From NCBI GenBank assembly GCA_028821265.1, contig JAPPGU010000008.1, positions 108,716 through 172,715 of the forward strand: a stretch of 64,000 nucleotides of DNA, in the 5' to 3' direction. The notes under the pieces are model-generated. The model worked only from the letters and a program-made list of their open reading frames with translations, was not told the DNA's origin and did not search any database. This DNA is from a bacterium (lineage in GTDB: Bacteria > Actinomycetota > Acidimicrobiia > Spongiisociales > Spongiisociaceae). How positions within the stretch are numbered: position 1 is the first letter of the stretch; every line of letters starts with the position of its first letter. Of this stretch, positions 1 through 40,863 are shown piece after piece. The position numbers and the translations under genes are program-made.

Positions 1-403
1 CGGGGTACCACCAGAAGTTCTCGGCGATCATGAACTTGATCCCGCTGTCCTCCACCACCTGGACGAGTTCCGCTACCTCCTCCGGTGAGGCGGCCATCGG
101 CTTCTCGCAGATGACATGCACACCGGCCGCGGCGGCCGCCTTGGTGACCGCCAGGTGGAGGAAGGGCGGCACGCAGACGGAAACGATGTCGAGGTCGGCC
201 TGCTCGATCATCTCCTCGAACGGACCGTAGACCTCGGGGATGCCATACTCGTCCGCTCTCTGCCGGGCCAGGTCGAGGTCGAGGTCGGCGATGGCCACCG
301 TCTCGACACCTTCTACGCGTTGCTGGACGGGCAGGTGGTAGACCGAGGCGGCGAAACCCGCCCCCACGCATCCGACCCTGTAGTTACCGTTGCGTTCGGC
401 CAC
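1..403 (-). CDS. Gfo/Idh/MocA family NAD(P)-dependent oxidoreductase, N-terminal part (runs off window start)
   Basis: Manual translation from GTG at 403 (RBS GAGGAG upstream): MAERNGNYRVGCVGAGFAASVYHLP...HVICEKPMA...ENFWWYP. Has the Rossmann GxGxxA and the EKP motif. Not in the ORF track because no stop lies in the window. Confidence 0.9.
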   Translation of the reverse strand, partial: MAERNGNYRVGCVGAGFAASVYHLPVQQRVEGVETVAIADLDLDLARQRADEYGIPEVYGPFEEMIEQADLDIVSVCVPPFLHLAVTKAAAAAGVHVICEKPMAASPEEVAELVQVVEDSGIKFMIAENFWWYP

Positions 404-423
404 CGGCTCCTCCTCGATACCCG

Positions 424-894
424 CTAGTCGGTCATTTCCTCGTACTTGGCGCTGATGTCATCCCACGGGACCAGAGTGTCGGCCCACCAATGGAGGCGGC
501 CCAGATAGACGCTCAACTCGTGGGTGTAGGCCAGGTACTCCTCGCGCGTCTCCATGTGGTCGAGCGCGTCGAGAGAACCACGCACCAGCGCGACGCTGTC
601 GTCGAGCCCGTACCAGTTGTGGAGTATGCCAAGCTGCGCGTCGCAGAACATCCGTACCACCTGCTTGAGCGTCTCCAGATCGAGCGACTCATCCCGGCCG
701 GCATTGCGTAGCACCGCCATGTCGTCGGCGAAGGCCCTGGTGTTCTCCTCGGCGCAGATGATCATCGGCCATCCGTACCCCTTGGTCCCCCGCCGGGTCG
801 TGAGCCTCCGGACCTCCTCCGGCATCTCGTACCAGATGGCATTGGTGGCGCGGTTCAGCACTTCAACGGTGTTCGCAACCCTGTAGTCCATCAT
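424..894 (-). CDS. Hypothetical helical protein resembling the cucumopine synthase C-terminal helical bundle domain
   Basis: 156 aa ORF between PTE and Gfo genes. Motifs IWYEMPEEVRR, LDLETLK and LDHMETREEY...YLGRLHWW...PW match the remembered pattern of that domain family; HMM check needed. Confidence 0.65.
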   Translation of the reverse strand: MMDYRVANTVEVLNRATNAIWYEMPEEVRRLTTRRGTKGYGWPMIICAEENTRAFADDMAVLRNAGRDESLDLETLKQVVRMFCDAQLGILHNWYGLDDSVALVRGSLDALDHMETREEYLAYTHELSVYLGRLHWWADTLVPWDDISAKYEEMTD

Positions 895-939
895 CCCATC
901 CTATCGGCCTCCGCCGGGGCGGCGCCAGACCCGACCCGG

Positions 940-1986
940 TCAGGCTGCCTTCATGGCGAGGGCGAGAGCGCGCGCCGGGTTGTCGATGACGGTCCCGTAG
1001 AGGGTGTTGACCGGCATGCCCCGCTTCTTGAGCGACGGGAGGATCACATTCATGATGTGGTCCCAGCCCGGGCCTCCGAAGCTCGACAGGCGGGCCTTCA
1101 GACCGATGTCGTGCGCAAAGAGGAGCTTGCCGCCCAGACCGTCCTCGACCATCCACTCGACTGTGGACATCCGGTCCTCGTCGGATACGTATACCCCGTC
1201 GGTCGGGCACGGGTGGCCCCAGTCGTCCAACTCCAGGAAGGTGTCGTAGGTTGCTATCTCCTCCAGATAGGGCCGGTCGTCGGTGCACAGGTCCAGGTGG
1301 CCGGCGATGACCCGGCTGGGATGCACGCCGTGGTCCTCGATCAGGAACCCGAGAATCGACGGCATCAGGCGCTGCTCGTGGAGCGCATGGATCTGGATGG
1401 CCGCACCGGTGGCGTGGTGGGTGATGGCGGCCGCTTCCAGGACCTTCCACTCGTTGCGCGTCACCGGGTCGGAGGTACCGATCTCCCCGATGATCCCGCA
1501 GCGGATGTCGGTCCCGTCGGCGCCGGTGGTGATGTCACCGATCATTCCCTCGGCCAACTCCTCGGCGGTCATCGAATCCACGTACCAGGGATGGGCATGG
1601 TCGACGTAGTACCCGGTGCCCGAGATGATGTTGATTCCGACATCGTCGGCGATCTTGCGCAATCCCCACACGTCCCTACCCAGACCGAGGTTCGAAGAGT
1701 CGACCACGCTGCGGCCCAGGGCCATCTTGAACCGCCTGATCTCCTGCGCGCTGAGCCTCCAGTCGGTGTTGATCAGGTTGTCGCGGCTGCGGTAGGGAAA
1801 CTCCCGGAGCAGCGCCGCGTTGTGGGGGGTCACCGGTACGTAGGAGTCGGACCCCAAGCCCCGATGCGTGCCTTCCAGGAACCACATGAGGCATGTGAAC
1901 AGCAGATGCTCGTGCATCATGGTCACGCCGAGTTGGTGAGGCTCGATGGGACCGTTGACAGTGATGATCTTGCCTGTTTCCTTCAT
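940..1986 (-). CDS. Phosphotriesterase-family (PHP-like) metallohydrolase #1
   Basis: TVNGP start, HEH, GEIG (Glu bridge), IHA, GHLD, HD metal ligands; DNPAR end. Confidence 0.92.
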   Translation of the reverse strand: MKETGKIITVNGPIEPHQLGVTMMHEHLLFTCLMWFLEGTHRGLGSDSYVPVTPHNAALLREFPYRSRDNLINTDWRLSAQEIRRFKMALGRSVVDSSNLGLGRDVWGLRKIADDVGINIISGTGYYVDHAHPWYVDSMTAEELAEGMIGDITTGADGTDIRCGIIGEIGTSDPVTRNEWKVLEAAAITHHATGAAIQIHALHEQRLMPSILGFLIEDHGVHPSRVIAGHLDLCTDDRPYLEEIATYDTFLELDDWGHPCPTDGVYVSDEDRMSTVEWMVEDGLGGKLLFAHDIGLKARLSSFGGPGWDHIMNVILPSLKKRGMPVNTLYGTVIDNPARALALAMKAA

Positions 1987-2051: not shown

Positions 2052-2492
2052 TCAGAACAGGCCGGAGACCTTGACTTTGACGTCCGCCGCATCGGACTCG
2101 ACTATGACCGTGATGTTCTCCACCCCGGGGTTGTACACCCAGATGGCCCGGTCGACGCCCTCCTCCGTCCTCACATCGAGAGGCGGCTCGAGCGCACCCG
2201 TGTAGAAGTCGACGAGCTCGTCGAAACCGGCGGTCACCTCGAAGAAGACATCGTCACCCGCCCCCGTGGGTTCCCAGTAGGCCGAGGTCACGCCGGGCGG
2301 GACCAGCTCGGGCGGAAATCTCGCCGGGAGTCCTTCAGTGGGCGCGGCCACTGTCGTCGGCGGCAGCGTGGTCATGGACGCCGGCTCGGTGGTGGCGGGA
2401 GCGGTGGTCGTGGCGGTGGTGGTCGGGCCGGCGTCACCGCCGCACGCGGCGAAGAGTAGGAGGGCGGTCGCCGGAACTACTAGGCGTTTCAT
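2052..2492 (-). CDS. Small lipoprotein of unknown function with Thr-rich linker
   Basis: ATG at 2492 with GAGGG RBS. MKRLVVPATALLLFAAC lipobox followed by TTTATTTAP. The longer track ORF to 2789 overlaps the opposite-strand permease. Confidence 0.75.
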   Translation of the reverse strand: MKRLVVPATALLLFAACGGDAGPTTTATTTAPATTEPASMTTLPPTTVAAPTEGLPARFPPELVPPGVTSAYWEPTGAGDDVFFEVTAGFDELVDFYTGALEPPLDVRTEEGVDRAIWVYNPGVENITVIVESDAADVKVKVSGLF

Positions 2493-2626
2493 CAACCCTC
2501 CCGGAGACCCGCAATCGATCAGTCTGCGGTTGATCCTAACTCGCGGCCGATGGTGCAGTCGGTTGTAACAGGTGACGGATCGCAGGGCAGTGGGTAGCAT
2601 CCGCGACGCGTCTGTAGAGGAGCCGG

Positions 2627-3535
2627 ATGGCCAGAGGTAGTCGTCGGCGAGGTGTCTCGCCTCCGGCGCGACCTCCGAAGCAGTCGTTGCTGATCGCCCA
2701 GGCCGCCTTCGTCCCGGTGATCCTGGCGATCGTCTGGTTCTTGGTGACCCGGGAGACCACGCTGGACCCCATGAGCCTGCCCTCGTCACTGCGCCTGTTC
2801 TTCACAACCGGCAGTTCGGGTCTTACCCGCATCGACCCGGTGTACCTGCCCCCGCCCGAAGCGGTTTACCACAGCGCCATCGAACTCTCCGATGTTCTCC
2901 CGGGCGCCCTCTGGATCTCGATGCGGATCGTGCTGCTGGGCCTCGCGTTCGGGGGTGTGGCCGGCATCGCCACCGGCCTGATCCTCGGCTACAGCCCGAC
3001 GATCCGGCGGTACTTCGAGGCCACGCTCGACAACCTGGTGCGCCCGGTCCCGTTCATCGCGTTCATCTACCTGTTCATCCTCTGGTTCAGGGTCGAGGCC
3101 GTCCGACTCGTCGTGCTCGTGGCCATCGGGATTTTCCTGCTTCTGAGCCTGACCACTCTCGAGGCGGTACGGAACGTCCCCCAGATCTACGTCAAGGCGG
3201 CCCTGACCGCCGGGGCGGAACGGTTCCGCATCTACCGAACGGTCGTCGTCCCGGCCATTACGCCGCACCTGATCGCATCCGTACGGTTGGGAGCCGCCTA
3301 CGCCTGGGGGCTGCTTGTCGCAGCCGAGCTAGCCGGTAGCCAGCAGGGTCTCGGCTACATCCTGATCAGCCGGGTCAACTTCTACCTGGACACGGCTTCC
3401 GCGGTGCTCATCGTGTTCATCTTCTGCTCCATGGCGGTGGTCTTCGATCAATCGGTACGGTACGCCGCCGGTCGGCTGACCAGGTGGAGCCCTCGGGCGA
3501 GGCGGGGAATGGTCGGCCACATGCTGGGGAATTGA
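2627..3535 (+). CDS. ABC transporter permease, NitT/TauT (SsuC/TauC-like) family
   Basis: GAGGAG RBS, hydrophobic helices, RPVP motif, AALTAGA loop, VAAELAG. Confidence 0.88.
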   Translation: MARGSRRRGVSPPARPPKQSLLIAQAAFVPVILAIVWFLVTRETTLDPMSLPSSLRLFFTTGSSGLTRIDPVYLPPPEAVYHSAIELSDVLPGALWISMRIVLLGLAFGGVAGIATGLILGYSPTIRRYFEATLDNLVRPVPFIAFIYLFILWFRVEAVRLVVLVAIGIFLLLSLTTLEAVRNVPQIYVKAALTAGAERFRIYRTVVVPAITPHLIASVRLGAAYAWGLLVAAELAGSQQGLGYILISRVNFYLDTASAVLIVFIFCSMAVVFDQSVRYAAGRLTRWSPRARRGMVGHMLGN

Positions 3536-29062: not shown

Positions 29063-30112
29063 TCAGGCGGGTGACTCTTCGGCAAGAGTCAGCACCCGGC
29101 GCGGGTTCTCGATCAGAATCTTGTTGATGATGTCGCGGGGTACGCCATCCCTGCTCAGCGTGGGGATGATCACGTTCATGATGTGGTCGTAGCCGGGCCC
29201 TCCGAAGCTGGACAGCCGCGCCTTGAGCCCGATGTCATGGGAGAACAGCAACTGGTCTTCGTGACCCTCGGAGATCATCCACTCGACGGCTCCGACCCGA
29301 TCGGCGTCGGAGACGTAAACCCCTTCGGTCGGGCATGGGTGCCCGAAGCCATCGAGTTCGAAGAAAGTGCCGTACTCGGCAACCCGCTTCATGTAGCTGC
29401 GGTCGCCGGTGGTCAGGTCCATGTGGCCGGCGATGACCCTGGTGGGATGCACCCCCATCTCCTTGACCAGCAGGTCCAGGATGTCGGGCATCAGCCTCTG
29501 CTCATGCAAGGCGTGGATCTGGATCGCGGCGCCCGTAGCGTGGTGGGTGATGGCGGCGGCTCTCAAGGCCTTCCACTCGGAGGGAGCGACCGGATCTGAC
29601 GTCCCGATCTCCCCGATCAGCCCGCAGCGGATCTCGGTGCCGTCCGCACCCTCGGTGATGTCCCGGATCATGCCCTCCGCCATCTCGTGCTCCGTCATCG
29701 ACTCGACGTACCAGGGCTGGGCGTGGTGGACGTAGTACCCGGTACCCGAGATGATGTTGACCCCGACATCGTCGGCGATCTTGCGCAACCCCCACACGTC
29801 CCTGCCGAGACCGAGGTCCGAGGAGTCCACGACGGTTCCGCCCAGCGCCATCTTGAAACGCCTCACCTCCATGGCGGTGAGGTACCAGTCGGTGTTGATC
29901 AGGTTGTCCCGGTTGTGGTAGGGGAACTCCCTGAGCAGGGCCGCGTTCTGGGCGGTCACCGGCATGTACGCGTCCGATCCCAGGCCGCGATGGCTCTCCT
30001 CCAGGAACCACATCAGGCACGTGAACAGCAGATGCTCGTGCATGAGGGTGATGCCGAGCCGGTCGGGCTCGACGGGGCCGTTGACGGTGATCACCTTGCC
30101 CTGATCCTTCAC
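29063..30112 (-). CDS. Phosphotriesterase-family protein #3 (close paralog of #1)
   Basis: GTG at 30112 with GGGAGG RBS; long identical stretches with 940-1986 (HEHLLFTCLMWFLE, ITHHATGAAIQIHALHEQRLMP, HDIGLKARLSSFGGPG). Confidence 0.92.
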   Translation of the reverse strand: MKDQGKVITVNGPVEPDRLGITLMHEHLLFTCLMWFLEESHRGLGSDAYMPVTAQNAALLREFPYHNRDNLINTDWYLTAMEVRRFKMALGGTVVDSSDLGLGRDVWGLRKIADDVGVNIISGTGYYVHHAQPWYVESMTEHEMAEGMIRDITEGADGTEIRCGLIGEIGTSDPVAPSEWKALRAAAITHHATGAAIQIHALHEQRLMPDILDLLVKEMGVHPTRVIAGHMDLTTGDRSYMKRVAEYGTFFELDGFGHPCPTEGVYVSDADRVGAVEWMISEGHEDQLLFSHDIGLKARLSSFGGPGYDHIMNVIIPTLSRDGVPRDIINKILIENPRRVLTLAEESPA

Positions 30113-30248
30113 GGCAACCTCCCTCGCCACGGTCCTGCCGGCACCAGACGACAATCGACGGTCTGCTTGTCGAATACAGGATCCTGCACCCCGGCGGTAC
30201 TCCTCTCCCGTCGGAGCGTACAGCAATCGGGCAGATCGTGGGCTGCGT

Positions 30249-31462: not shown

Positions 31463-32278
31463 CTAAGGCCTGAGCACCTCCGCGAGCACGGCCCGCGCCT
31501 CGCTGAGCGTTACAGGTCGGTAGGGATCCTTGGCGATGAACTCCCGCAGTTGGGAAATGGTGAAGCCGTCGCCGCCGTAAGCCCGGTCGGCGTCGGTGAG
31601 CTCCTGGGGCTCCAGGACCGCTCCCGGGGTGTGGGTTGCCACGAACTCCATGGACTTGGTGCCCGGCGGGGCGTAACCGATCCACATCGAGCCGATGTCG
31701 GGCCTCGGCAGGTAGTAGGGCTCGACCTCCCCATAACCGGCCTCCCGGACGGCGTCGGAACAGCGTTCGGCCAGGTCATAAGGGTGGATCTCGGTCAGCA
31801 GGAAGTCATGGAAGTGCTCGATGTCCGGATCTCGCATCTTCCCGAGCATCTCCTGCCAGTGTTCCGAGGCGAAGTAGCGGTCGATGGCGTCGTGGTCGGA
31901 GTCGTTGATCCGCCTCGGGGCCACCTCTCCGAGGTAGGACCGCTCGCCGGCGTCGCCGAGCAGGACGGTGCTGCCGTCGGGATCAGGCCCGATGAGTGCG
32001 TCGTCCCCGTACGTCCACATCAGGAAGAAGGAGGGGCGGTCGGCGGTGTAGTACTTGACGAGTCCCCGGTTGCCCACCACGGCGTGGCCCACGTTGACCA
32101 CATCCTTTCCCATGGCGGCCAGGTACCGGTCGAACAGGAACTCCAGGGTCACCGGGTGGACACTCGTGGAGAGCATCACCTCATGGAGGGTCAGGTCGGA
32201 TCGGTGCATCAAGTCGATGTTCTCCGCCCAGTAGTCGGAACGGAAGAAGGTGATCAGCTCCTCGACCGTGGATGTCAT
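31463..32278 (-). CDS. Hypothetical protein with an internal two-fold repeat
   Basis: GC3-rich coding pattern, GAGGAG RBS region, last gene of a long operon; residues about 12-57 align with about 136-181. Confidence 0.8.
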   Translation of the reverse strand: MTSTVEELITFFRSDYWAENIDLMHRSDLTLHEVMLSTSVHPVTLEFLFDRYLAAMGKDVVNVGHAVVGNRGLVKYYTADRPSFFLMWTYGDDALIGPDPDGSTVLLGDAGERSYLGEVAPRRINDSDHDAIDRYFASEHWQEMLGKMRDPDIEHFHDFLLTEIHPYDLAERCSDAVREAGYGEVEPYYLPRPDIGSMWIGYAPPGTKSMEFVATHTPGAVLEPQELTDADRAYGGDGFTISQLREFIAKDPYRPVTLSEARAVLAEVLRP

Positions 32279-32302: not shown

Positions 32303-33520
32303 TCACTGCCCGGACATCAGCCCGTCTAGGACGGCTTGCCCCGGGTTGACGAGTTCCTCCCCGGGAACTCTGCCCGACAATACTTCGGGCCACTTCGGCC
32401 CGGCGCCCGTTATGCAGCAAACCACGAAGTCGCCGGGTTCGATCACTCCCTGGCGCGCCAACTCCCAGGCGCCGGCGAGGGCGGCGGCCGAGGCCAGCTC
32501 GGGGCTCACCCCCACCCTGGCAGCCCGATGGAGGGCCTCGAAGATGGCCGCGTCGGTGACTTCGACCGCGGTCCCGCCCGAGTCGCGGATCGCCTGGAGC
32601 GCGATCCGCCCGCCGGTGTCGTCAGCAATGGAGAGGGCCGCTGTGTCGGGACCAGGATGTACCGGAACGTCGTCCAACCCCTTCTCGATGGCCTCCACGA
32701 TCGGGTTGGCGCCCGCCGCCTGTACCCCGTGCACGCGGGGAAGCGACTCGGTCAGACCGAGGCGGTATAGCTCCTGGAAGCCCTTCCAGGGGCCGTACAG
32801 GCCATCGCCGGCGGCCACGGGGAACAGGTAGTGATCCGGCGCCCGTCCCAGAGACAGCACCGCGTCATAGGCCATGGTCTTGTATCCCTCCACTCCGTAC
32901 GGCGTCGATACGGGCATGGGAGTCATGTAGGTCGAGGGGTACCAGCCGTGTTCTTCTACGAAGGCCTGGAGCGGAGGCTTGCGGTTCATCTCCACGACCA
33001 CGGTCGCCCCGAACAGGCGCATCCAGTCCCTTTGTGTCTTGGGTGCCCGAGGGTCGGCCAGTACCACGCAGCGCATTCCGGCCCGGGCCGCGTAGGCGGC
33101 GGCGCTCATGCCGTGGTTGCCGGTGGTGGAGCACACCACCCCGTCGAAGCCGAGCTGCCGGGCCATGGATATCGAGACCGAATGGAAGCGGTCCTTGAAT
33201 GCGTAGGTGGGGTTGACGGTCTCGTTCTGGAGGTAGAGGAAGGGCAGCGGGTTCCCGCCCGAACGAGGAACCCGGATCATGGGCGTGCCGCCCTCCCCGA
33301 GCGTGATCCTCTCGGCGCCAGCGGGGAGCGGGAGGAGTTCGGCGTAGCGCCACACTGACGCCGACCGCCGGGCCCACCTTTCCAGGGACACGACCGAGCG
33401 GACCGCCGCCTCGTTGTACATCACCTCGAGGGCCTCGCCACATGCCGGGCAGCCCCGGAAATAGGCGCCCAGGTCGTAGTCGACCGCGCACCTGATGCAC
33501 CGCAGGCCTTTTGCGAACAT
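32303..33520 (-). CDS. Threonine-synthase-like PLP enzyme (fold type II)
   Basis: N-terminal CxxC...CxxC, TLGEGGTP, NPTYAFKDR (PLP Lys), STTGNHG, EGYKTMAY. Confidence 0.88.
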   Translation of the reverse strand: MFAKGLRCIRCAVDYDLGAYFRGCPACGEALEVMYNEAAVRSVVSLERWARRSASVWRYAELLPLPAGAERITLGEGGTPMIRVPRSGGNPLPFLYLQNETVNPTYAFKDRFHSVSISMARQLGFDGVVCSTTGNHGMSAAAYAARAGMRCVVLADPRAPKTQRDWMRLFGATVVVEMNRKPPLQAFVEEHGWYPSTYMTPMPVSTPYGVEGYKTMAYDAVLSLGRAPDHYLFPVAAGDGLYGPWKGFQELYRLGLTESLPRVHGVQAAGANPIVEAIEKGLDDVPVHPGPDTAALSIADDTGGRIALQAIRDSGGTAVEVTDAAIFEALHRAARVGVSPELASAAALAGAWELARQGVIEPGDFVVCCITGAGPKWPEVLSGRVPGEELVNPGQAVLDGLMSGQ

Positions 33521-33581: not shown

Positions 33582-34538
33582 TCAGCCCGAGGCGGTTGCC
33601 CACGGCTCGACGTTGATCTGGTCGTCCCCCAGGGTGAGCACCGCGTCGGAGGAAAAAGCGTCGATCGGGGTCTCCTGGGTGGAGTACGCGTCCAGCCACG
33701 GAGTCCGGTAGCCGTCCTCCGACCAGAGGACCGGGAAGAAGTTGTCGTCGAAGTCCTGCTGTCCGGGCGCGAAGTAGCGGCTGTAGGCCCGGTGGCGGAT
33801 CCGGGGGTGGTGCCGGGAGCTGGCCGGAATCATATGGATGCTGTAGGACCGCCGGATGTTCCCGGGCCGGGTGTTGGGCCCGCTCCCGTGCCATATCCAG
33901 CCGGTGTGGAAAGCGGCCGACCCGGCCCCGAATACCAGCGACACCAGTTCGACCTCCTCCCCCTCGGGGGCGTACTGCTGGACGTAGTCGGTCCATCCCT
34001 CCATCGTGTCGCGGGCGATCTGGGTGGTGCCGGGCGCCGGCTGCGGACCCCACTTGTGGCTTCCCCGCACGTAAACGAGGGTCCCCCCGTCGGCGTAGGT
34101 GTCGTCGAGCGCGATCCAGCAGGTCCAGTTCCACACCGGATCGACCCAGCACATGAAGGCCGCGTCCTGGTGGATGTCGAAGGGCTTGCCGCCCTCCGGC
34201 TTGTACATGGCGACATCGGCCCAGAGTCGGGCGCTCGACGCCCCCTCCAGCTGGCAGGCCAGCTTGCCGAACGGCCCCCCGAAGGTGTGCTTGGCCACCA
34301 CCGGATCGGCCCGCCACAAGCCGGCCAGCACCCGATGGGCGTCCACGGGGTCCCTTCCCTTCTGCCAGTAGTACTCGTCCGGCCAATTGACCAGGTCATG
34401 CTGCCCGTCGAAGATTCGGTCGTACCTCTCCCGCAGCTCCATCACCGCGTCCATGTCGATCAGGTCCTCCACGATCAGGAACCCGTCCTCGCGATATTGC
34501 TGTATCTGCGCTTCGGTGAACTGCTCGATCACTACCAA
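33582..34538 (-). CDS. PhyH-family Fe(II)/2-oxoglutarate dioxygenase
   Basis: QYREDGFL, HQD, WIALDD, WHGSGPN..R. Confidence 0.9.
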   Translation of the reverse strand: MVVIEQFTEAQIQQYREDGFLIVEDLIDMDAVMELRERYDRIFDGQHDLVNWPDEYYWQKGRDPVDAHRVLAGLWRADPVVAKHTFGGPFGKLACQLEGASSARLWADVAMYKPEGGKPFDIHQDAAFMCWVDPVWNWTCWIALDDTYADGGTLVYVRGSHKWGPQPAPGTTQIARDTMEGWTDYVQQYAPEGEEVELVSLVFGAGSAAFHTGWIWHGSGPNTRPGNIRRSYSIHMIPASSRHHPRIRHRAYSRYFAPGQQDFDDNFFPVLWSEDGYRTPWLDAYSTQETPIDAFSSDAVLTLGDDQINVEPWATASG

Positions 34539-35065: not shown

Positions 35066-36118
35066 TCAGACCGCGAAGATGCGCCGGGGGTTCTTCACCA
35101 GCATGTCGTCGACCTGGTCCTCGGTGACCCCCAGCTCGCGCAGCTGCGGCACGATCTCGTTGAGGATGTAGGCATAGCCCTTGCCGCCGTACTCCACGAA
35201 GTGGATCTTGAGGCAGTTGTCGTGGGCGAGCATGATCTGATTGCTGTAGCCGTCGGCGCACATGCGGGCGAGGGTCTCCACCCGCTCCCGGTCGGAGATC
35301 CAGTGGTCGCCCCCGAACAGCAGGTGGGAGTCGTTCCAAGGAGTCCCCCGGAACAGGTCGTAGTCGATTGAGACGCCCCGGTCCATCACCGACTCGTGAT
35401 ACTCGTAGTCAGGGCAGCTCCCGTCCATATGGCTCATGTAGACCTTGTCGAGGTTGGCGCCCTCCTCCTCCAAGATGTCGATGTAACGGTGAGCCTCCTT
35501 CATGAACACCATCGGATGCACGGTGAGCGGAACCCCGGTGGCCGCCTGGGCCCTACCCCCGGCCCGGAGGACCTTCTCCTCCTGGGGGTGCAGGGGCTCG
35601 CACATGCCCAACTCGCCGATGACGCCCGCCCGAATGTCGGTCCCCTGGATACCCACCTCGATGTCGCTGATCAACATCTCGGCCAACTCTCCCACCGATG
35701 CCGTGGCGTGGCCGGAAGGATGGGACGGAGCGATGTACCAACCGGTCGAGGCGACGACATTGAGCCCGGTGGCGCGGCTGGCCTCCGCCAAGGCGTCCGG
35801 CCACCAGCCCGGTATCTTGCCGCTCACATCGATGATGCTCTTCCCGCCGGCGTCGGCGTACAGCTGCAGCTCCCGGATGGCAACGTCGAGTTCGGTCATG
35901 TTGAGGTTGTCCCGGGAGATGTAGGGCCGCTCGGCCAGTATCTCGTACGCGTCCAGGGTGACGGGCGCCTCCGCCAGGGCCTGGACCTCTGGGGGGTCGT
36001 CGGGGCCGGGCGGCTCCCAGAACAGGTCGCCGCTGTCGATGATGATGTGTTCGTGGCTGAGGGTGACTCCCAGATCCTCCGGCTCTATCTCTCCCAGAAC
36101 GGTCCGGACCTTCGGCAT
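35066..36118 (-). CDS. Phosphotriesterase-family protein #4
   Basis: TVLG, HEH, GELG, VH, SH, AHD, NPRR. Confidence 0.92.
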   Translation of the reverse strand: MPKVRTVLGEIEPEDLGVTLSHEHIIIDSGDLFWEPPGPDDPPEVQALAEAPVTLDAYEILAERPYISRDNLNMTELDVAIRELQLYADAGGKSIIDVSGKIPGWWPDALAEASRATGLNVVASTGWYIAPSHPSGHATASVGELAEMLISDIEVGIQGTDIRAGVIGELGMCEPLHPQEEKVLRAGGRAQAATGVPLTVHPMVFMKEAHRYIDILEEEGANLDKVYMSHMDGSCPDYEYHESVMDRGVSIDYDLFRGTPWNDSHLLFGGDHWISDRERVETLARMCADGYSNQIMLAHDNCLKIHFVEYGGKGYAYILNEIVPQLRELGVTEDQVDDMLVKNPRRIFAV

Positions 36119-36146: not shown

Positions 36147-36929
36147 TCAGAACTGTGCCCCCGCCCGATGGAGCGCGTCGATCAACTCGGCCCGGTGATC
36201 CTGGAACTCGGTGCTGGTGCGGAGCGATTCCTCCCTCGGGTGGGGGAACGGGACATCCGTCAGGTGGAACAACTGGCCCGGTCCGGTGGACATCACGAAG
36301 ACCCGCTCGCTCAGGTACAGGGCCTCCTCGACGTCGTGGGTGACGAACAGCACGGTGGCGCGCGAGTCCTCCCAGATCTTCAGGAACTCAGCCTGCAGAC
36401 GCGTCTTGGTCATGGCGTCCAGGGAGGCGAAGGGCTCGTCCATCAGCAGGACGTCGGGCTCGGCGGCTAGGGCACGGGCCACATCCACGCGCTTTCGCAT
36501 ACCGCCCGACAGCTGGTACGGGTAGGCGTCCTCCCGGCCTGACAGGCCGACCAGGTCGATGAAGCCCTGTGCCTTCTGGCGTCGTTCTCCCTTCTCGACT
36601 CCCTTGACCCGCAGGCCGTACTCGACGTTCTGGGCCACCGTGTACCAGGGGAACACCGCGTCGTCCTGAAAGACCATGCTGCGGTCCGGGCCGGGAGCGG
36701 TCACCTCGATCCCATCCCGGGCGATCGTGCCGCTGGTCGGGACCAGCAGTCCGGCCACCAGGTTGAGCAGGGTCGACTTGCCGCACCCGCTCGGACCGAG
36801 CAATGACACGAAGTCACCCTCGGTGAGTTGGAAGGAGATGTTGTCGAGGACATGCAGGTCGTCGAAGTAGATGGAGAGATCCCGTACGTCCAGCTTGACT
36901 GCGCCGCCGCTGCCCATGTCCATCGTCAT
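36147..36929 (-). CDS. ABC ATPase, NitT/TauT (TauB/SsuB-like)
   Basis: GPSGCGKS, LSGGMRKR, LLMDEPF, VTHD. Confidence 0.95.
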   Translation of the reverse strand: MTMDMGSGGAVKLDVRDLSIYFDDLHVLDNISFQLTEGDFVSLLGPSGCGKSTLLNLVAGLLVPTSGTIARDGIEVTAPGPDRSMVFQDDAVFPWYTVAQNVEYGLRVKGVEKGERRQKAQGFIDLVGLSGREDAYPYQLSGGMRKRVDVARALAAEPDVLLMDEPFASLDAMTKTRLQAEFLKIWEDSRATVLFVTHDVEEALYLSERVFVMSTGPGQLFHLTDVPFPHPREESLRTSTEFQDHRAELIDALHRAGAQF

Positions 36930-36993: not shown

Positions 36994-39900
36994 TCACTGC
37001 TCTTTCTCGACCTTCATCTTCCGGCGGTTGAAGGCCGTCGCCTCGGTCTCCACCACCAGATCCTCGTCCAGTATCACCCCGTAGTCTCGTAGGGCCGCCT
37101 CACGTCCGATCTTGCCGTTCCTCACGTCCTCGGCGACGTGCCGCGGGTCCCGTTCCAACGGATTACCCCAGCCGCCGCCGCCCGCCTGAACGTGGTGGTA
37201 CAGCTCGCCCGCAGCCAGGCCGTCGCTGAACATAGGCGGGAACTCCTCGTCCTCGCCGGACAGCCTCGAAACGGTGTTGGCGGACAATCCGCCCGGCGCG
37301 CCGCCCATCAGACCGAAGGGCGGGTGCCGCTGGCGGTCGGAGCGGATCAGCAGGGAGGTGGGCACCAGCGGCCGCCATGACTTCTCCAGACCGAGACCAC
37401 CGCGGTGGCGCCCCGCCCCGCCGCTGTCGGGCACCAGGCCATAGCGTTCGATAATGATCGGGAATTCGGCTTCGGCCACCTCGATGGGGACGTTGGCTGC
37501 AGTGGCTATGGGGTTGCTGAGCCCGTCGTTCCCGTCGCCCTCAGGAGTGGCTCCCCAGGTCCCGACCAGTAGCTCGAAGTAGACGAAGGGCTCGCCGTCA
37601 TCGTGATGACCTCCAAGAATGACGACGGTGTTGCCACCCTCTCCGGCCGCGGGCACGCGGTCCGGGACCAGTTGGGCTAGGGCGCCGTTGATGGCGTCGA
37701 AGGCGCGGAACCCGGTGACGCCCCTCATCGAGTTGGCGCCCGGATAGACGGCGTGGGTGACCGTCCCCGGTTTTGTAACGATGCGGACCGGGCGGAAGGC
37801 ACCGGCGGTGTTGGGGAACTCCGAGGCGGCGGCCGACATGACGCAGTGGTATGCGGTCGCCACGATGAACGAACGGGTGGCATTGAGAGACCCCGCCACC
37901 ATGGGATCCGAATCCGAGAGGTCGACCATCACCTCATCCTCCTGGATCGTCACCTTCACCCTTATGGCCACGTCCCGGCTCTCGATCCCGTCCGAGTCCA
38001 TGTAGTCGGTGAAGGTGGCGGTCCCGTCCGGCCAGGTGGAGATCTCCTTGCGCATCAGGACCTCGGTGTAGTCGATAAGCCCGTCCATCAGCTCGGTCAG
38101 CCGCCCGATCCCGTACCGCTCGGCCATCGCCTGCAACGCCCTTTCCCCGACCGAGCAGGCCGCCACCTGGGCGCCGAGATCGCCGAAGAGCATGTGGGGA
38201 ACCCGTACGTTGGCCCTGATGAGGGCGTGGACCTCCTCCACGGGCCGGCCCTCCTTGTACAGGTGCATCCACGGTATCCGGAGACCGTCCTGGAACACCT
38301 CGGTGTTGTCGGTGGCCGAGCTCCCGAGCAGCCTTCCGCCGATGTCACCGTGGTGGGCGGTGGCCACGCCGTAGCCGATCAGGGTGTCCTCGTAGTAGAC
38401 GGGCTTTATGACGAACACGTCGGGTAAGTGCATGCCGCCGTCGAACGGATCGTTCATGATGAAGACGTCACCGGGGCGCATCCTGTCGCGGAAGCGGGCG
38501 AGGAGGGCATCCACGGCCGTGGGGACCGCCCCGAGATGGAAGGGAATGGTCACGGCCTGGGCAACGGTCTGGGCGTCCGGACCGAGCAGGGCGGCGGAGA
38601 AGTCCATGGCGTCCCGAACCACGGTCGAGTGGGCGGTCCGGAAGATGGTGGTGGCCATCTCGTCGGCGGCGGAAGCCAGGGCGTTGGCGACTATCTGGCG
38701 GGTCACGACATCGGCATGCTGTACCTCGGTCTTGCCGCCTTCCTCGTGGCTGAGGAAGAGGGCGCCCGATGCATGCCGGCGGGCGACCCAGCCGGGCGGC
38801 ACCACGATCGTGGTGTCGTATTCGTCGACGAGCAGCGGACCGGTCATCCCGTCCGGTCCCACGCCGGTCCTCCGTGCCAGCACCGGAGCGTCCAGGTAGC
38901 CACCGGCCAGGCTGAAGAGGGCGGGACGCGAGCCGTCGGATGGCTCGGCTCCGTCGGCGTGGCCGCTAAGCGTGGCTTCCTGCGACACCTGCCTGGTTCG
39001 GGGCAGGGGCCCGAGGGCGGCGAGTCGGACCGCTCGCACCTCGATCGGGTCGTCCGGATCCTTGCGTACGCCGTACAACTGCTCGTGGCGGTCCTCGAAG
39101 TCCGCCACCAGCTTCGCCAGCCCGGTAACCGTCATCTCGGTCTCCGCAATGGTCACCTCGATGTCGAAGCTCTGGCCCTTGTAGCGCACGTCGGCGGATC
39201 GGACCCACTCGGTAACGCCGCCGGAGATGCTCGACTCCAGTCGGGACTCCAGCTCGGCCAGCAGTCGGGACATGGTGGGGATCACCGAGGAGTCCCTGGC
39301 GTCGAGTTCGCAGAACCGGACATCGTGGTACTCCGGCCGGGCGTAGAGGAGACCAGCCGCAGAGAAGACCCCGGCATTGGGGGGCACGACCACCGTGTCG
39401 ATCCCCAGTTCGGTCGCCAGGCTGGCCGCGTGGATAGGACCTGCCCCGCCGAAGGCGATCAGGGCGAACTCCCGCGGATCACGCCCGCGTTCTGACGAGA
39501 CCGCGCGCAGGGCGCGCATCATCCGGGCGTTGGCCAGATCGTGGACACCCCGGGCGGCCTCCGCCACCGGAATCCCCAGTGGGGTGGCCACCGACTCCAG
39601 GGCGGACCTCGCCAGACCCGGTTTGATCGATACGGCATCCCCGGCGAGCGGTCCGGACCGGACGTAGCCCAGCACCACGTTGGCGTCGGTCACGGTGGGA
39701 TCGTCCCCGCCGAGGCCGTAGCAGGCGGGACCGGGAACCGCCCCCGCGCTGCGAGGACCCACCTGGAGGCCTCCGGCGGAGTCCACCCAGGCGATGCTCC
39801 CGCCACCGGCCCCCACCTCGGCGATGTCGATGCTCGGCACCCTCAGCAGCTCTCCGGAACCACGCAGCAACCGGGTCCCCACCGATAGGTCGGCGCCCAC

Positions 39901-40863
39901 CTCGTATTCCCTGCTGAGGGTCACCCGCCCTTCCTCGATCAGCGACGCCTTGGCCGTGGTGCCGCCCATGTCGAACGAGATGGCGTTCGCTATGCCCAGT
40001 TCCCTGGCCAATCCCTGCGCGGCCACCACCCCGGCCGCCGGACCGGACTCGAGGGCGTAGACCGGCCGGTGGGCCGCGTCGGCGGCGGTCATGGCGCCGC
40101 CGGACGACTGCATGATCAGTACCGGAGCATCTACCCCGACTCCTTCCAGACCGTCCACGAGATCGCGCACGTAGGCGCCCATGATCGGGATCACGTAGGC
40201 ATTGAGGGCGGTGGTGGCGGATCGCTCGTACTCGTTCTGCTCCCTGAGAACCTCGTTCGACAGCACGACATGGACGCCCGGGAGTTCGCGTCTCAGGATC
40301 CGCGCCACCTGCTCCTCATGGGCCGGGTACTTGTGGGCGTGCAGCAGGCAGACCGCCACCGCCTCCACATGCTCGTCGCGCAGTCGGGCGGCCACGTCCG
40401 CCACTTCGGCCTCGTCAACCGGACGGTGGGACGTCCCGTCGGCCAGCATGCGCTCGCCGATCTCGAACCGGAGGCGCCTCTCGACAATCGGCGGCGGCTT
40501 GCGCCAGAACGGGTTGTAGAGGTGGGGCATCCTGACTCTGCGGAGCTCCAGCACGTCGCGGAACCCCTCCGTGGTCACCAGGGCCAGGTGGGCGCCCCGG
40601 CGCTCCAGGATGGCGTTGGTCGCCACCGTGGTCCCGTGGATCACCTCCTGGACCAGGGTTGGCGCCGCCCGGGGAGAGTCACCCAGCAAGGTGTCGATGG
40701 CGACGGTGACCGCCTTGTCGAAGGAGGGAGGTGTGGACAGCACCTTGCGCGTGGTGGTGCGGCCGTCGGGTTCCTGGACGATGACGTCGGTAAAGGTGCC
40801 GCCTACATCCGCGCCTACCCGGCTACCCACGCCAACCCCACTCTTCGCGACAGACGTCGACAC
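36994..40863 (-). CDS. Fused hydantoinase A+B / oxoprolinase-family ATP-dependent cyclic amide hydrolase
   Basis: DVGGTFTD, HGTTVATN, SGPAAG, DMGGTT in the A half; NDPFDGGMHLPD, HHGDIGG, GGAGRHRGG, GGGGWG in the B half. Confidence 0.92.
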   Translation of the reverse strand: MSTSVAKSGVGVGSRVGADVGGTFTDVIVQEPDGRTTTRKVLSTPPSFDKAVTVAIDTLLGDSPRAAPTLVQEVIHGTTVATNAILERRGAHLALVTTEGFRDVLELRRVRMPHLYNPFWRKPPPIVERRLRFEIGERMLADGTSHRPVDEAEVADVAARLRDEHVEAVAVCLLHAHKYPAHEEQVARILRRELPGVHVVLSNEVLREQNEYERSATTALNAYVIPIMGAYVRDLVDGLEGVGVDAPVLIMQSSGGAMTAADAAHRPVYALESGPAAGVVAAQGLARELGIANAISFDMGGTTAKASLIEEGRVTLSREYEVGADLSVGTRLLRGSGELLRVPSIDIAEVGAGGGSIAWVDSAGGLQVGPRSAGAVPGPACYGLGGDDPTVTDANVVLGYVRSGPLAGDAVSIKPGLARSALESVATPLGIPVAEAARGVHDLANARMMRALRAVSSERGRDPREFALIAFGGAGPIHAASLATELGIDTVVVPPNAGVFSAAGLLYARPEYHDVRFCELDARDSSVIPTMSRLLAELESRLESSISGGVTEWVRSADVRYKGQSFDIEVTIAETEMTVTGLAKLVADFEDRHEQLYGVRKDPDDPIEVRAVRLAALGPLPRTRQVSQEATLSGHADGAEPSDGSRPALFSLAGGYLDAPVLARRTGVGPDGMTGPLLVDEYDTTIVVPPGWVARRHASGALFLSHEEGGKTEVQHADVVTRQIVANALASAADEMATTIFRTAHSTVVRDAMDFSAALLGPDAQTVAQAVTIPFHLGAVPTAVDALLARFRDRMRPGDVFIMNDPFDGGMHLPDVFVIKPVYYEDTLIGYGVATAHHGDIGGRLLGSSATDNTEVFQDGLRIPWMHLYKEGRPVEEVHALIRANVRVPHMLFGDLGAQVAACSVGERALQAMAERYGIGRLTELMDGLIDYTEVLMRKEISTWPDGTATFTDYMDSDGIESRDVAIRVKVTIQEDEVMVDLSDSDPMVAGSLNATRSFIVATAYHCVMSAAASEFPNTAGAFRPVRIVTKPGTVTHAVYPGANSMRGVTGFRAFDAINGALAQLVPDRVPAAGEGGNTVVILGGHHDDGEPFVYFELLVGTWGATPEGDGNDGLSNPIATAANVPIEVAEAEFPIIIERYGLVPDSGGAGRHRGGLGLEKSWRPLVPTSLLIRSDRQRHPPFGLMGGAPGGLSANTVSRLSGEDEEFPPMFSDGLAAGELYHHVQAGGGGWGNPLERDPRHVAEDVRNGKIGREAALRDYGVILDEDLVVETEATAFNRRKMKVEKEQ

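Follow-up and report, generated by a model that had tools for sequence, protein, structure and literature searches.

The 64,000-nucleotide stretch of DNA analyzed here (the window; positions 108,716 to 172,715 of contig JAPPGU010000008.1 in assembly GCA_028821265.1, or G000:C9:108716-172715 in our coordinates) comes from a bacterium of the acidimicrobiial family Spongiisociaceae, and near its left edge lies a gene for a 156-amino-acid (aa) protein that we refer to as CucC. A first-pass annotation of the window had described this gene as co-oriented between a phosphotriesterase-family (PTE) hydrolase and a Gfo/Idh/MocA dehydrogenase and had taken the three as an operon. The arrangement is as described, with all three open reading frames (ORFs) on the minus strand, matches of the flanking genes to PF02126 and PF01408, a gap of 45 nt between PTE and CucC, and a gap of 20 nt between CucC and Gfo, but the three genes do not form a unit of their own. 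A further 16 kb of contig to the left of the window was included, and this sequence rules out a self-contained PTE/Gfo operon, as the three genes are the head of a nine-gene minus-strand microcompartment operon with the order PTE-CucC-Gfo-unk271-Aldedh-BMC-H-BMC-P-BMC-T-DUF3830. We consider it probable that CucC and DUF3830 are the two subunits of a split enzyme, with CucC as the helical one, and that this enzyme is carried as cargo of the microcompartment, and we infer the heteromer, its encapsulation, and its reaction from sequence, predicted structure, and gene order. The nine genes are as follows:

Window 940-1986, minus strand: PTE-family protein (phosphotriesterase-like lactonase/amidohydrolase), 348 aa, operon gene 1 (PF02126, E = 6e-61).
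Window 424-894, minus strand: CucC, stand-alone Cucumopine_C helical-bundle protein, 156 aa (PF18631).
Window 2-403, minus strand: 5' part of the Gfo/Idh/MocA gene, N-terminal 134 aa, cut by the left window edge (PF01408, E = 3e-27); the full gene, 352 aa, occupies G000:C9:108060-109118, minus strand (also PF22725 and PF02894).
G000:C9:107187-108002, minus strand: unk271, operon copy of a 271-aa protein family, following Gfo.
Left of the window, minus strand: aldehyde dehydrogenase (Aldedh), 594 aa (PF00171, E = 1.6e-169; domain from residue 121).
Left of the window, minus strand: bacterial microcompartment (BMC) shell protein BMC-H (PF00936, E = 2.8e-26).
Left of the window, minus strand: shell protein BMC-P (PF03319, E = 9e-23).
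G000:C9:104122-104757, minus strand: shell protein BMC-T, 211 aa, CcmP-like (NCBIfam CcmP, E = 4e-41).
G000:C9:103575-104117, minus strand, outside the window: DUF3830/cyclophilin-like protein, about 180 aa, at the 3' end of the operon.

Genes from unk271 to DUF3830 are spaced by 1 to 71 nt, and DUF3830 is followed by genes for a solute-binding protein, two permeases, an S15 hydrolase, and an ATP-binding cassette (ABC) ATPase. Because BMC-H, BMC-P, and BMC-T cluster with enzymes, we identify the locus as a BMC (metabolosome) operon, and it is the sole locus with shell genes in the genome. The BMC-T of the present genome has no Pfam match at E ≤ 0.1, while its orthologues carry CsoS1D_N (PF27545) in precomputed annotation. 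The PTE protein falls below every NCBIfam equivalog cutoff. The best NCBIfam matches of Aldedh are to betaine-aldehyde dehydrogenase (533 bits to TIGR01804), HpaE, and StyD, all below their equivalog cutoffs, and the active-site motifs of the enzyme read ELGGKSP and GQVCSAG; on its sequence, the operon Aldedh is of the CoA-independent class.

The first-pass annotation had also likened CucC to the C-terminal helical bundle of cucumopine synthase, and this likeness holds at the level of both profile and fold. CucC matches PF18631 (Cucumopine_C) with E = 2e-13 and 51.2 bits (curated cutoff, 27) over profile positions 3 to 138 of 141, and the two motifs that had been quoted are present in the protein as AIWYEMPEEVRRL and METREEYLAYTHELSVYLGRLHWWADTLVPW; NCBIfam holds no model for it. 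A phmmer search of the Protein Data Bank (PDB) with CucC returned McbB of Marinactinospora thermotolerans (3x27, deposited as "cucumopine synthase"; residues 184 to 325, E = 2e-4) as the best sequence match and KslB of Kitasatospora setae weakly. The AlphaFold2 model of CucC, built from an 11-sequence alignment, is a seven-helix bundle (predicted local distance difference test [pLDDT] score, 89.3; predicted template modeling [pTM] score, 0.84), and in a Foldseek search against the PDB the top 21 matches of this model were all chains of KslB (9ns6, 9nst, and 9k0a), with TMq values of 0.62 to 0.70 and about 22% identity. Superposition on KslB gave a root mean square deviation of about 3 Å for most chains, and the matches that follow the top 21 have a TMq of 0.3 or lower, leaving KslB as the only confident structural match. 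An invariant Trp94 of CucC aligns with the substrate-stacking Phe89 of KslB, a tentative correspondence given the weak alignment. The bundle of the operon clade conserves RRGTKGY.WP...CAEENTRAFAD, NWY, and GRLHWW.DTLVPW, and ratios of nonsynonymous to synonymous substitution (dN/dS) of about 0.08 to 0.10 against three orthologues indicate that CucC is under purifying selection. Orthologues have their N terminus at the second Met of CucC (MDY...), which makes a 155-aa product, translated from the second ATG, the more probable one. We detected no CucC-like gene elsewhere in the genome, and among 401 sampled genomes of the phylum PF18631 was found in one, which is the present genome.

The stand-alone homologs of the cucumopine synthase bundle had been regarded as orphans with no known function, and our survey of the family changes this picture, since they appear to be the helical half of a two-gene pair whose other half is a DUF3830 barrel. 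An exhaustive hidden Markov model (HMM) search for the CucC family yielded 211 clusters at E ≤ 1e-3, and among the best 150 of these, for which lengths were counted, 117 are 121 to 200 aa long and 20 are 260 to 400 aa long. When ten of the longer members were scanned against Pfam, six proved to have Cyclophil_like, Cyclophil_like2, or DUF3830 as a second domain, and the other four showed no second domain in that scan. The barrel is N-terminal in five of the fused proteins (P0041, P0051, P0082, P0144, and P0135) and C-terminal in P0098, which matches Pictet-Spenglerase structures as well as the stand-alone cyclophilin-like proteins 2nnz and TM1367. The operon DUF3830 matches only stand-alone cyclophilin-like structures in the PDB (2nnz, 3kop, and TM1367), and no direct sequence link from it to McbB or KslB was found there, so the connection between DUF3830 and the Pictet-Spenglerases was made through the fused members and hhalign. 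This comparison aligned the DUF3830 proteins of the operon clade with the barrels of the fused members with a probability of 99.8% (E = 4e-29, 124 columns), and both groups share the motif LP...HA.(L/V)(A/S)G.E. The barrel of the operon clade further conserves NHARLAGDE(L/I)MFP.R, EN, and GN(I/V)(A/S)YWP(D/E)RM, and H40, R42, D46, E47, R53, and E59 are among its conserved residues.

Gene order among distant relatives gives the same picture. In all six of the distant stand-alone homologs that were examined (P0013, P0014, P0015, P0018, P0020, and P0025), a DUF3830 gene lies directly upstream, the two genes overlapping by up to 4 nt or lying up to 17 nt apart; on cut contigs the upstream DUF3830 was recognized by translation. 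Two additional loci (L005 and L006) contain DUF3830 within the CucC locus. Because the fusions, the hhalign homology, and the gene adjacency agree, members of this family seem to occur most often as a two-gene DUF3830-CucC pair, with the single-chain Pictet-Spenglerases apparently the less common, fused form. The distant pairs have varied neighbors: L025 carries genes for a nitroreductase and an M19 membrane dipeptidase, L027 genes for an amidohydrolase and a dihydroorotate-dehydrogenase-like protein, and L031 a gene of the GLUCM-like_C type. The DUF3830-CucC pair seems to be a portable module of several nitrogen-compound pathways. The present genome also contains a second, weak DUF3830-like stretch at G000:C19:20445-20591, with 41% identity over 49 residues.

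A word-index search recovered only 11 close relatives. A scan of the Genome Taxonomy Database (GTDB) found 12 genomes with 88 to 98% identity, nine of which are labeled as Acidimicrobiia or as Candidatus Spongiisocius/Spongiisociaceae, which from its name we take to be a sponge-symbiont lineage. The nine-gene order was kept in 15 of 15 long loci. The first-pass annotation had asked whether PTE and Gfo recur beside CucC homologs, and this was borne out for PTE among the close loci only, where it adjoins CucC in every case (15/15), while Gfo recurs among both close and distant loci. The distant homologs (43 to 51% identity) retain Gfo, the 271-aa family, and DUF3830 and lack PTE, with hydantoinase A and B and the PLP (pyridoxal phosphate) enzyme variably present, and no shell genes were seen in their loci, one of which (L031) is a contig of only 3.9 kb. 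The evolutionarily stable module is thus CucC, DUF3830, Gfo, and unk271.

A further connection between DUF3830 and the microcompartment comes from its N terminus. The first 47 residues of Aldedh (MRRFVTTEDIRELAEVGEFELMMREGTVLTDAALDEAHRLGVRLVEG; G000:C9:107034-107174) and of DUF3830 (MRRILTTEDIRTVARQGKTELVVEPPTVITAAAREEAGLAGIRIIEG; G000:C9:103977-104117) are 51% identical (E = 3e-10), with no third copy in the genome, and every relative keeps this domain on the two proteins, with positions T6, D9, G17, and E20 invariant. DUF3830 orthologues whose loci yielded no shell genes lack the domain and are 131 to 136 aa long, versus 180 to 182 aa. The 47-aa domain has no match in Pfam or the PDB. In 10 of 15 orthologous N termini, however, it matches positions 1 to 48 of the NCBIfam EutQ model NF012001, with a best E value of 2.5e-6, and the only other family that it matches is another eut-locus protein family. 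Weak similarity was also seen to two C termini, that of PduM and that of the eut protein TIGR02536. In Salmonella EutQ, helices H1 and H2 attach to the EutM/EutL shell interface and helices H3 and H4 bind cargo peptides (bioRxiv 10.1101/2024.05.17.594633), and we infer a shell-targeting role for the 47-aa domain from this work. Because the shared domain appears homologous to EutQ H1-H2, Aldedh and DUF3830 are likely to be directly shell-tethered cargo, bound to the shell through the 47-aa domain, and CucC, which has no such domain, would be brought in through its association with DUF3830. A classical amphipathic encapsulation peptide was not seen.

These features also bear on whether CucC could be noncatalytic, serving as an assembly factor of the microcompartment or as a partner or chaperone of PTE or Gfo. 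The protein is small, all-helical, and without a recognizable catalytic motif, it is tightly spaced between PTE and Gfo, and the tested bundle residues F89 and N93 of KslB are not essential for catalysis (PMC12012969). We nevertheless regard such a role as improbable, given that CucC lacks an EutQ-like or encapsulation extension, that its homologs occur in loci without PTE and without shell genes seen and always with DUF3830, and that the occurrence of bundle-barrel fusions in both orders speaks for CucC and DUF3830 working as a single functional unit.

The operon is part of a larger island. In L001 and L022, the CucC/microcompartment block directly follows a second gene set that consists of a fused caprolactamase-like hydantoinase A/B, an ABC ATPase, a PTE paralogue, a PhyH dioxygenase, a threonine-synthase-like PLP enzyme, a paralogue of the 271-aa protein, and another PTE paralogue, and in L001 the set also includes genes for glyoxalase, Amidohydro_2, and Aminotran_3. 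The present genome has the second half of the island at 29 to 41 kb of the window, about 27 kb from the operon, with the following genes:

Window 29063-30226, minus strand: PTE3, the third PTE-family paralogue of the island (PF02126, E = 1.4e-62; synteny in L015, L017, and L018).
Window 31463-32278, minus strand: unk271 paralogue, 46% identical to the operon copy (tblastn).
Window 32303-33520, minus strand: threonine-synthase-like PLP enzyme (Pfam, NCBIfam, synteny).
Window 33582-34538, minus strand: PhyH dioxygenase (Pfam, NCBIfam, synteny).
Window 35066-36118, minus strand: PTE2 (Pfam, NCBIfam, synteny).
Window 36147-36929, minus strand: ABC ATPase (Pfam, NCBIfam, synteny).
Window 36994-40863, minus strand: fused caprolactamase-like hydantoinase A/B (Pfam, NCBIfam, synteny).

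The hydantoinase is closest to caprolactamase in NCBIfam, below the cutoff. The 271-aa family, which comes after Gfo in every CucC context, has no Pfam or NCBIfam match; its alignment (A3) contains the invariant motifs NVGHA, EHFH, RPD, and YGGD. The AlphaFold2 model of the operon copy made from this alignment (pLDDT, 95) consists of two similar beta-alpha-beta-beta-beta halves, and a Foldseek search with it returned only weak matches to vicinal oxygen chelate (VOC) proteins (glyoxalase, HPPD, and DUF1338/3lho; TM score of 0.22 or lower). This family may represent a new 2-His-1-carboxylate metalloenzyme. Because the caprolactamase-like ring opener, the three PTE paralogues, PhyH, the PLP enzyme, and the S15 hydrolase are encoded nearby, the gene content points to a small nitrogen heterocycle or cyclic amide as the substrate of the pathway.

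McbB and KslB both combine a helix bundle with a beta-barrel, with the domain order swapped between the two, and in KslB the essential residues Glu274, Arg256, and Lys264 sit in the barrel, with the nonessential bundle residues F89, Y92, and N93 lining the pocket of the dimer partner (PMC12012969). The CucC bundle and the DUF3830 barrel would rebuild this two-domain architecture in trans, and by analogy with KslB the bundle may form the oligomer interface and close the substrate pocket of the barrel. We hypothesize that the pair would act on an amino-acid/carbonyl ring adduct, either imported or derived from the pathway, and cleave it in a reaction of the retro-Pictet-Spengler or retro-Mannich type, freeing a reactive aldehyde that the co-targeted Aldedh would oxidize to the acid. 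Outside the shell, Gfo, unk271, the PTE paralogues, the caprolactamase-like ATP-dependent ring opener, the PLP enzyme, and PhyH would prepare the substrate or finish its conversion. The enzyme enclosed with an aldehyde dehydrogenase in metabolosomes is normally the aldehyde producer (PMC8217296), and because the co-enclosed partner of the dehydrogenase makes the aldehyde in these systems, DUF3830/CucC is the strongest candidate for the organelle's signature enzyme. The first-pass annotation had proposed turnover of an opine-like amino-acid/carbonyl conjugate, which remains a reasonable guess for this candidate enzyme. A more specific proposal, which we put forward tentatively and consider somewhat unlikely as a whole, is that the pair is a "retro-Pictet-Spenglerase," a C-C/C-N lyase that would open a tetrahydro-imidazopyridine- or tetrahydro-beta-carboline-type adduct (e.g., a sponge alkaloid or an opine-like compound) and would be the signature enzyme of an uncatalogued class of actinobacterial metabolosomes with an enzyme-fused EutQ-H1/H2 tether.

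Several observations weigh against a split, encapsulated, aldehyde-releasing enzyme. The catalytic Glu of the characterized enzymes (E97 in McbB, within the motif YGPLTE, and E274 in KslB), which is invariant in the fused set, aligns to a Gly in the FYGDTGGVG motif of the operon DUF3830. Across 13 loci of the sponge clade, this position is occupied by Gly in 10 (FYGDTGGVG), by Asp in L001 and L022, and by Glu in L004, and L016 gave no result in the motif search. MAFFT places an Ala and a hydrophobic residue at the positions of KslB Arg256 and Lys264, in gapped loops where the alignment is uncertain. The DUF3830/CucC pair is accordingly not a proven Pictet-Spenglerase, its partner subunit having Gly in place of the catalytic Glu, and because the catalytic residues are not conserved, its chemistry may differ from the Pictet-Spengler reaction in either direction. 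In addition, CucC and DUF3830 are six genes apart in the present operon rather than adjacent, the EutQ-like match involves short domains and moderate E values, and the operon ORFs include no PduL/Pta phosphotransacylase and no alcohol dehydrogenase; together with the CoA-independent Aldedh, this departs from the canonical metabolosome core, in which the aldehyde dehydrogenase is CoA-acylating. It is solely from co-targeting with Aldedh that the pair is considered possibly aldehyde releasing.

The unconserved Glu, Arg, and Lys (the last two within the uncertain alignment) would also fit a real heteromer that catalyzes a different step, such as the hydrolysis, isomerization, or cyclization of a ring-opened nitrogen compound, with the aldehyde coming from Gfo, unk271, or the PLP enzyme, and it is consistent with this that the pair is accompanied by Gfo and unk271 throughout, whether or not shell genes are present. 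The putative shell-binding domain, however, is found only on DUF3830 and Aldedh, and the co-enclosed enzyme would normally be the aldehyde producer (PMC8217296); we judge this alternative unlikely. A true biosynthetic Pictet-Spenglerase, making an opine- or beta-carboline-type product by condensation of an amino acid (His or Trp) and an aldehyde or 2-oxo acid, is suggested by all characterized relatives (McbB, KslB, and cucumopine synthase), which carry out condensations (PMC12012969), and a condensation could also serve to trap an aldehyde. The setting of the operon is catabolic, with ABC importers, Aldedh, shell genes, an ATP-dependent ring opener, and hydrolases, genes for tailoring or export are absent, and DUF3830 lacks the catalytic Glu, making this biosynthetic alternative very improbable.

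If CucC is indeed the helical subunit of a split, encapsulated enzyme, the system differs in several respects from those already described. KslB, like CucC, contains the helix bundle, has an aromatic residue at the substrate-stacking position (F89; W94 in CucC), and has a cyclophilin-like barrel homologous to the operon DUF3830, but it is one 317-aa chain with the bundle N-terminal to the barrel, and it is biosynthetic (kitasetaline), whereas CucC and DUF3830 are separate genes in a catabolic, shell-associated context. McbB, the source of PF18631, has a barrel-then-bundle order equivalent to the DUF3830-then-CucC gene order of the distant pairs; both McbB and the cucumopine synthase of Ri plasmids are single-chain proteins without a microcompartment, unlike the split proteins of the present shell operon. 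In EutQ, the module resembling the N termini of Aldedh and DUF3830 is part of a separate protein that acts as a bridge, with H3-H4 binding the cargo peptides, whereas here the module is fused to the enzymes themselves.

Among the microcompartments catalogued by Sutter et al. (2021; PMC8217296), the MIC and MUF metabolosomes resemble the present locus in combining BMC-H, BMC-P, and BMC-T with a pfam00171 dehydrogenase and no obvious classical signature enzyme. The ARO type resembles it in its actinobacterial host and in a dehydrogenase related to CoA-independent semialdehyde dehydrogenases, and we considered an ARO-type microcompartment on these grounds. ARO loci encode two ring-opening oxygenases of pfam02900 and lack BMC-T, have no detectable targeting signal, and occur in Micromonosporales and Pseudonocardiales (PMC8217296), and the shell composition and enzyme set rule out this assignment. 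The PF18631, DUF3830, Gfo, and PTE genes set the present locus apart from the MIC, MUF, and ARO entries, and the text and supplements of the catalogue contain no pfam18631, pfam12903, pfam02126, or pfam01408 and no Acidimicrobiia (PMC8217296). A literature search likewise found no mention of DUF3830/PF12903, nor of Acidimicrobiia, sponges, and microcompartments together.

About 80% of the sequence clusters seen in the CucC family are uncharacterized stand-alone bundles, and in the eight contexts examined they all adjoin or lie near a DUF3830 gene. To our knowledge, only a handful of enzymes with the bacterial Pictet-Spenglerase fold have been described, all of them single-chain and biosynthetic; new here are a putative split enzyme with this fold and a metabolosome with a putative fused EutQ-type tether. 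Two families of unknown function, the stand-alone PF18631 proteins and part of PF12903, thereby gain a testable quaternary model, and for a microcompartment type absent from the published catalogue the model offers candidates for both the signature enzyme and the targeting module. The host belongs to a lineage of sponge symbionts that are abundant and uncultured, and the proposed pathway may bear on what they take from the sponge. A directly fused shell-binding tag would also be of interest to microcompartment engineering.

The two halves of the island, contiguous in L001 and L022, are parted in the present genome by about 27 kb of sequence (window positions ∼2000 to 29000) that encodes a NitT/TauT-like ABC importer, a short-chain dehydrogenase/reductase, a DAO flavoprotein, two creatinase-fold M24 proteins, and a sarcosine-oxidase-alpha/GcvT-like protein with iron-sulfur motifs. 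A different catabolic module seems to have been inserted or rearranged here. The creatinase-like and sarcosine-oxidase-like genes at 7 to 15 kb of the window led us to consider a creatinine or N-methylhydantoin pathway as the source of the substrate, an idea that was not adopted, as these genes lie in the segment that is absent between the island halves of relatives and the hydantoinase is nearest to caprolactamase. Just upstream of the PTE gene, the minus strand contains a 245-aa ORF (window 2052-2789) that had no match in a Pfam search. An internal Met start (MKRLVVPATALLLFAACGG...) is probable for this ORF, and the product from this start would be a small lipoprotein with a Thr/Pro-rich linker.

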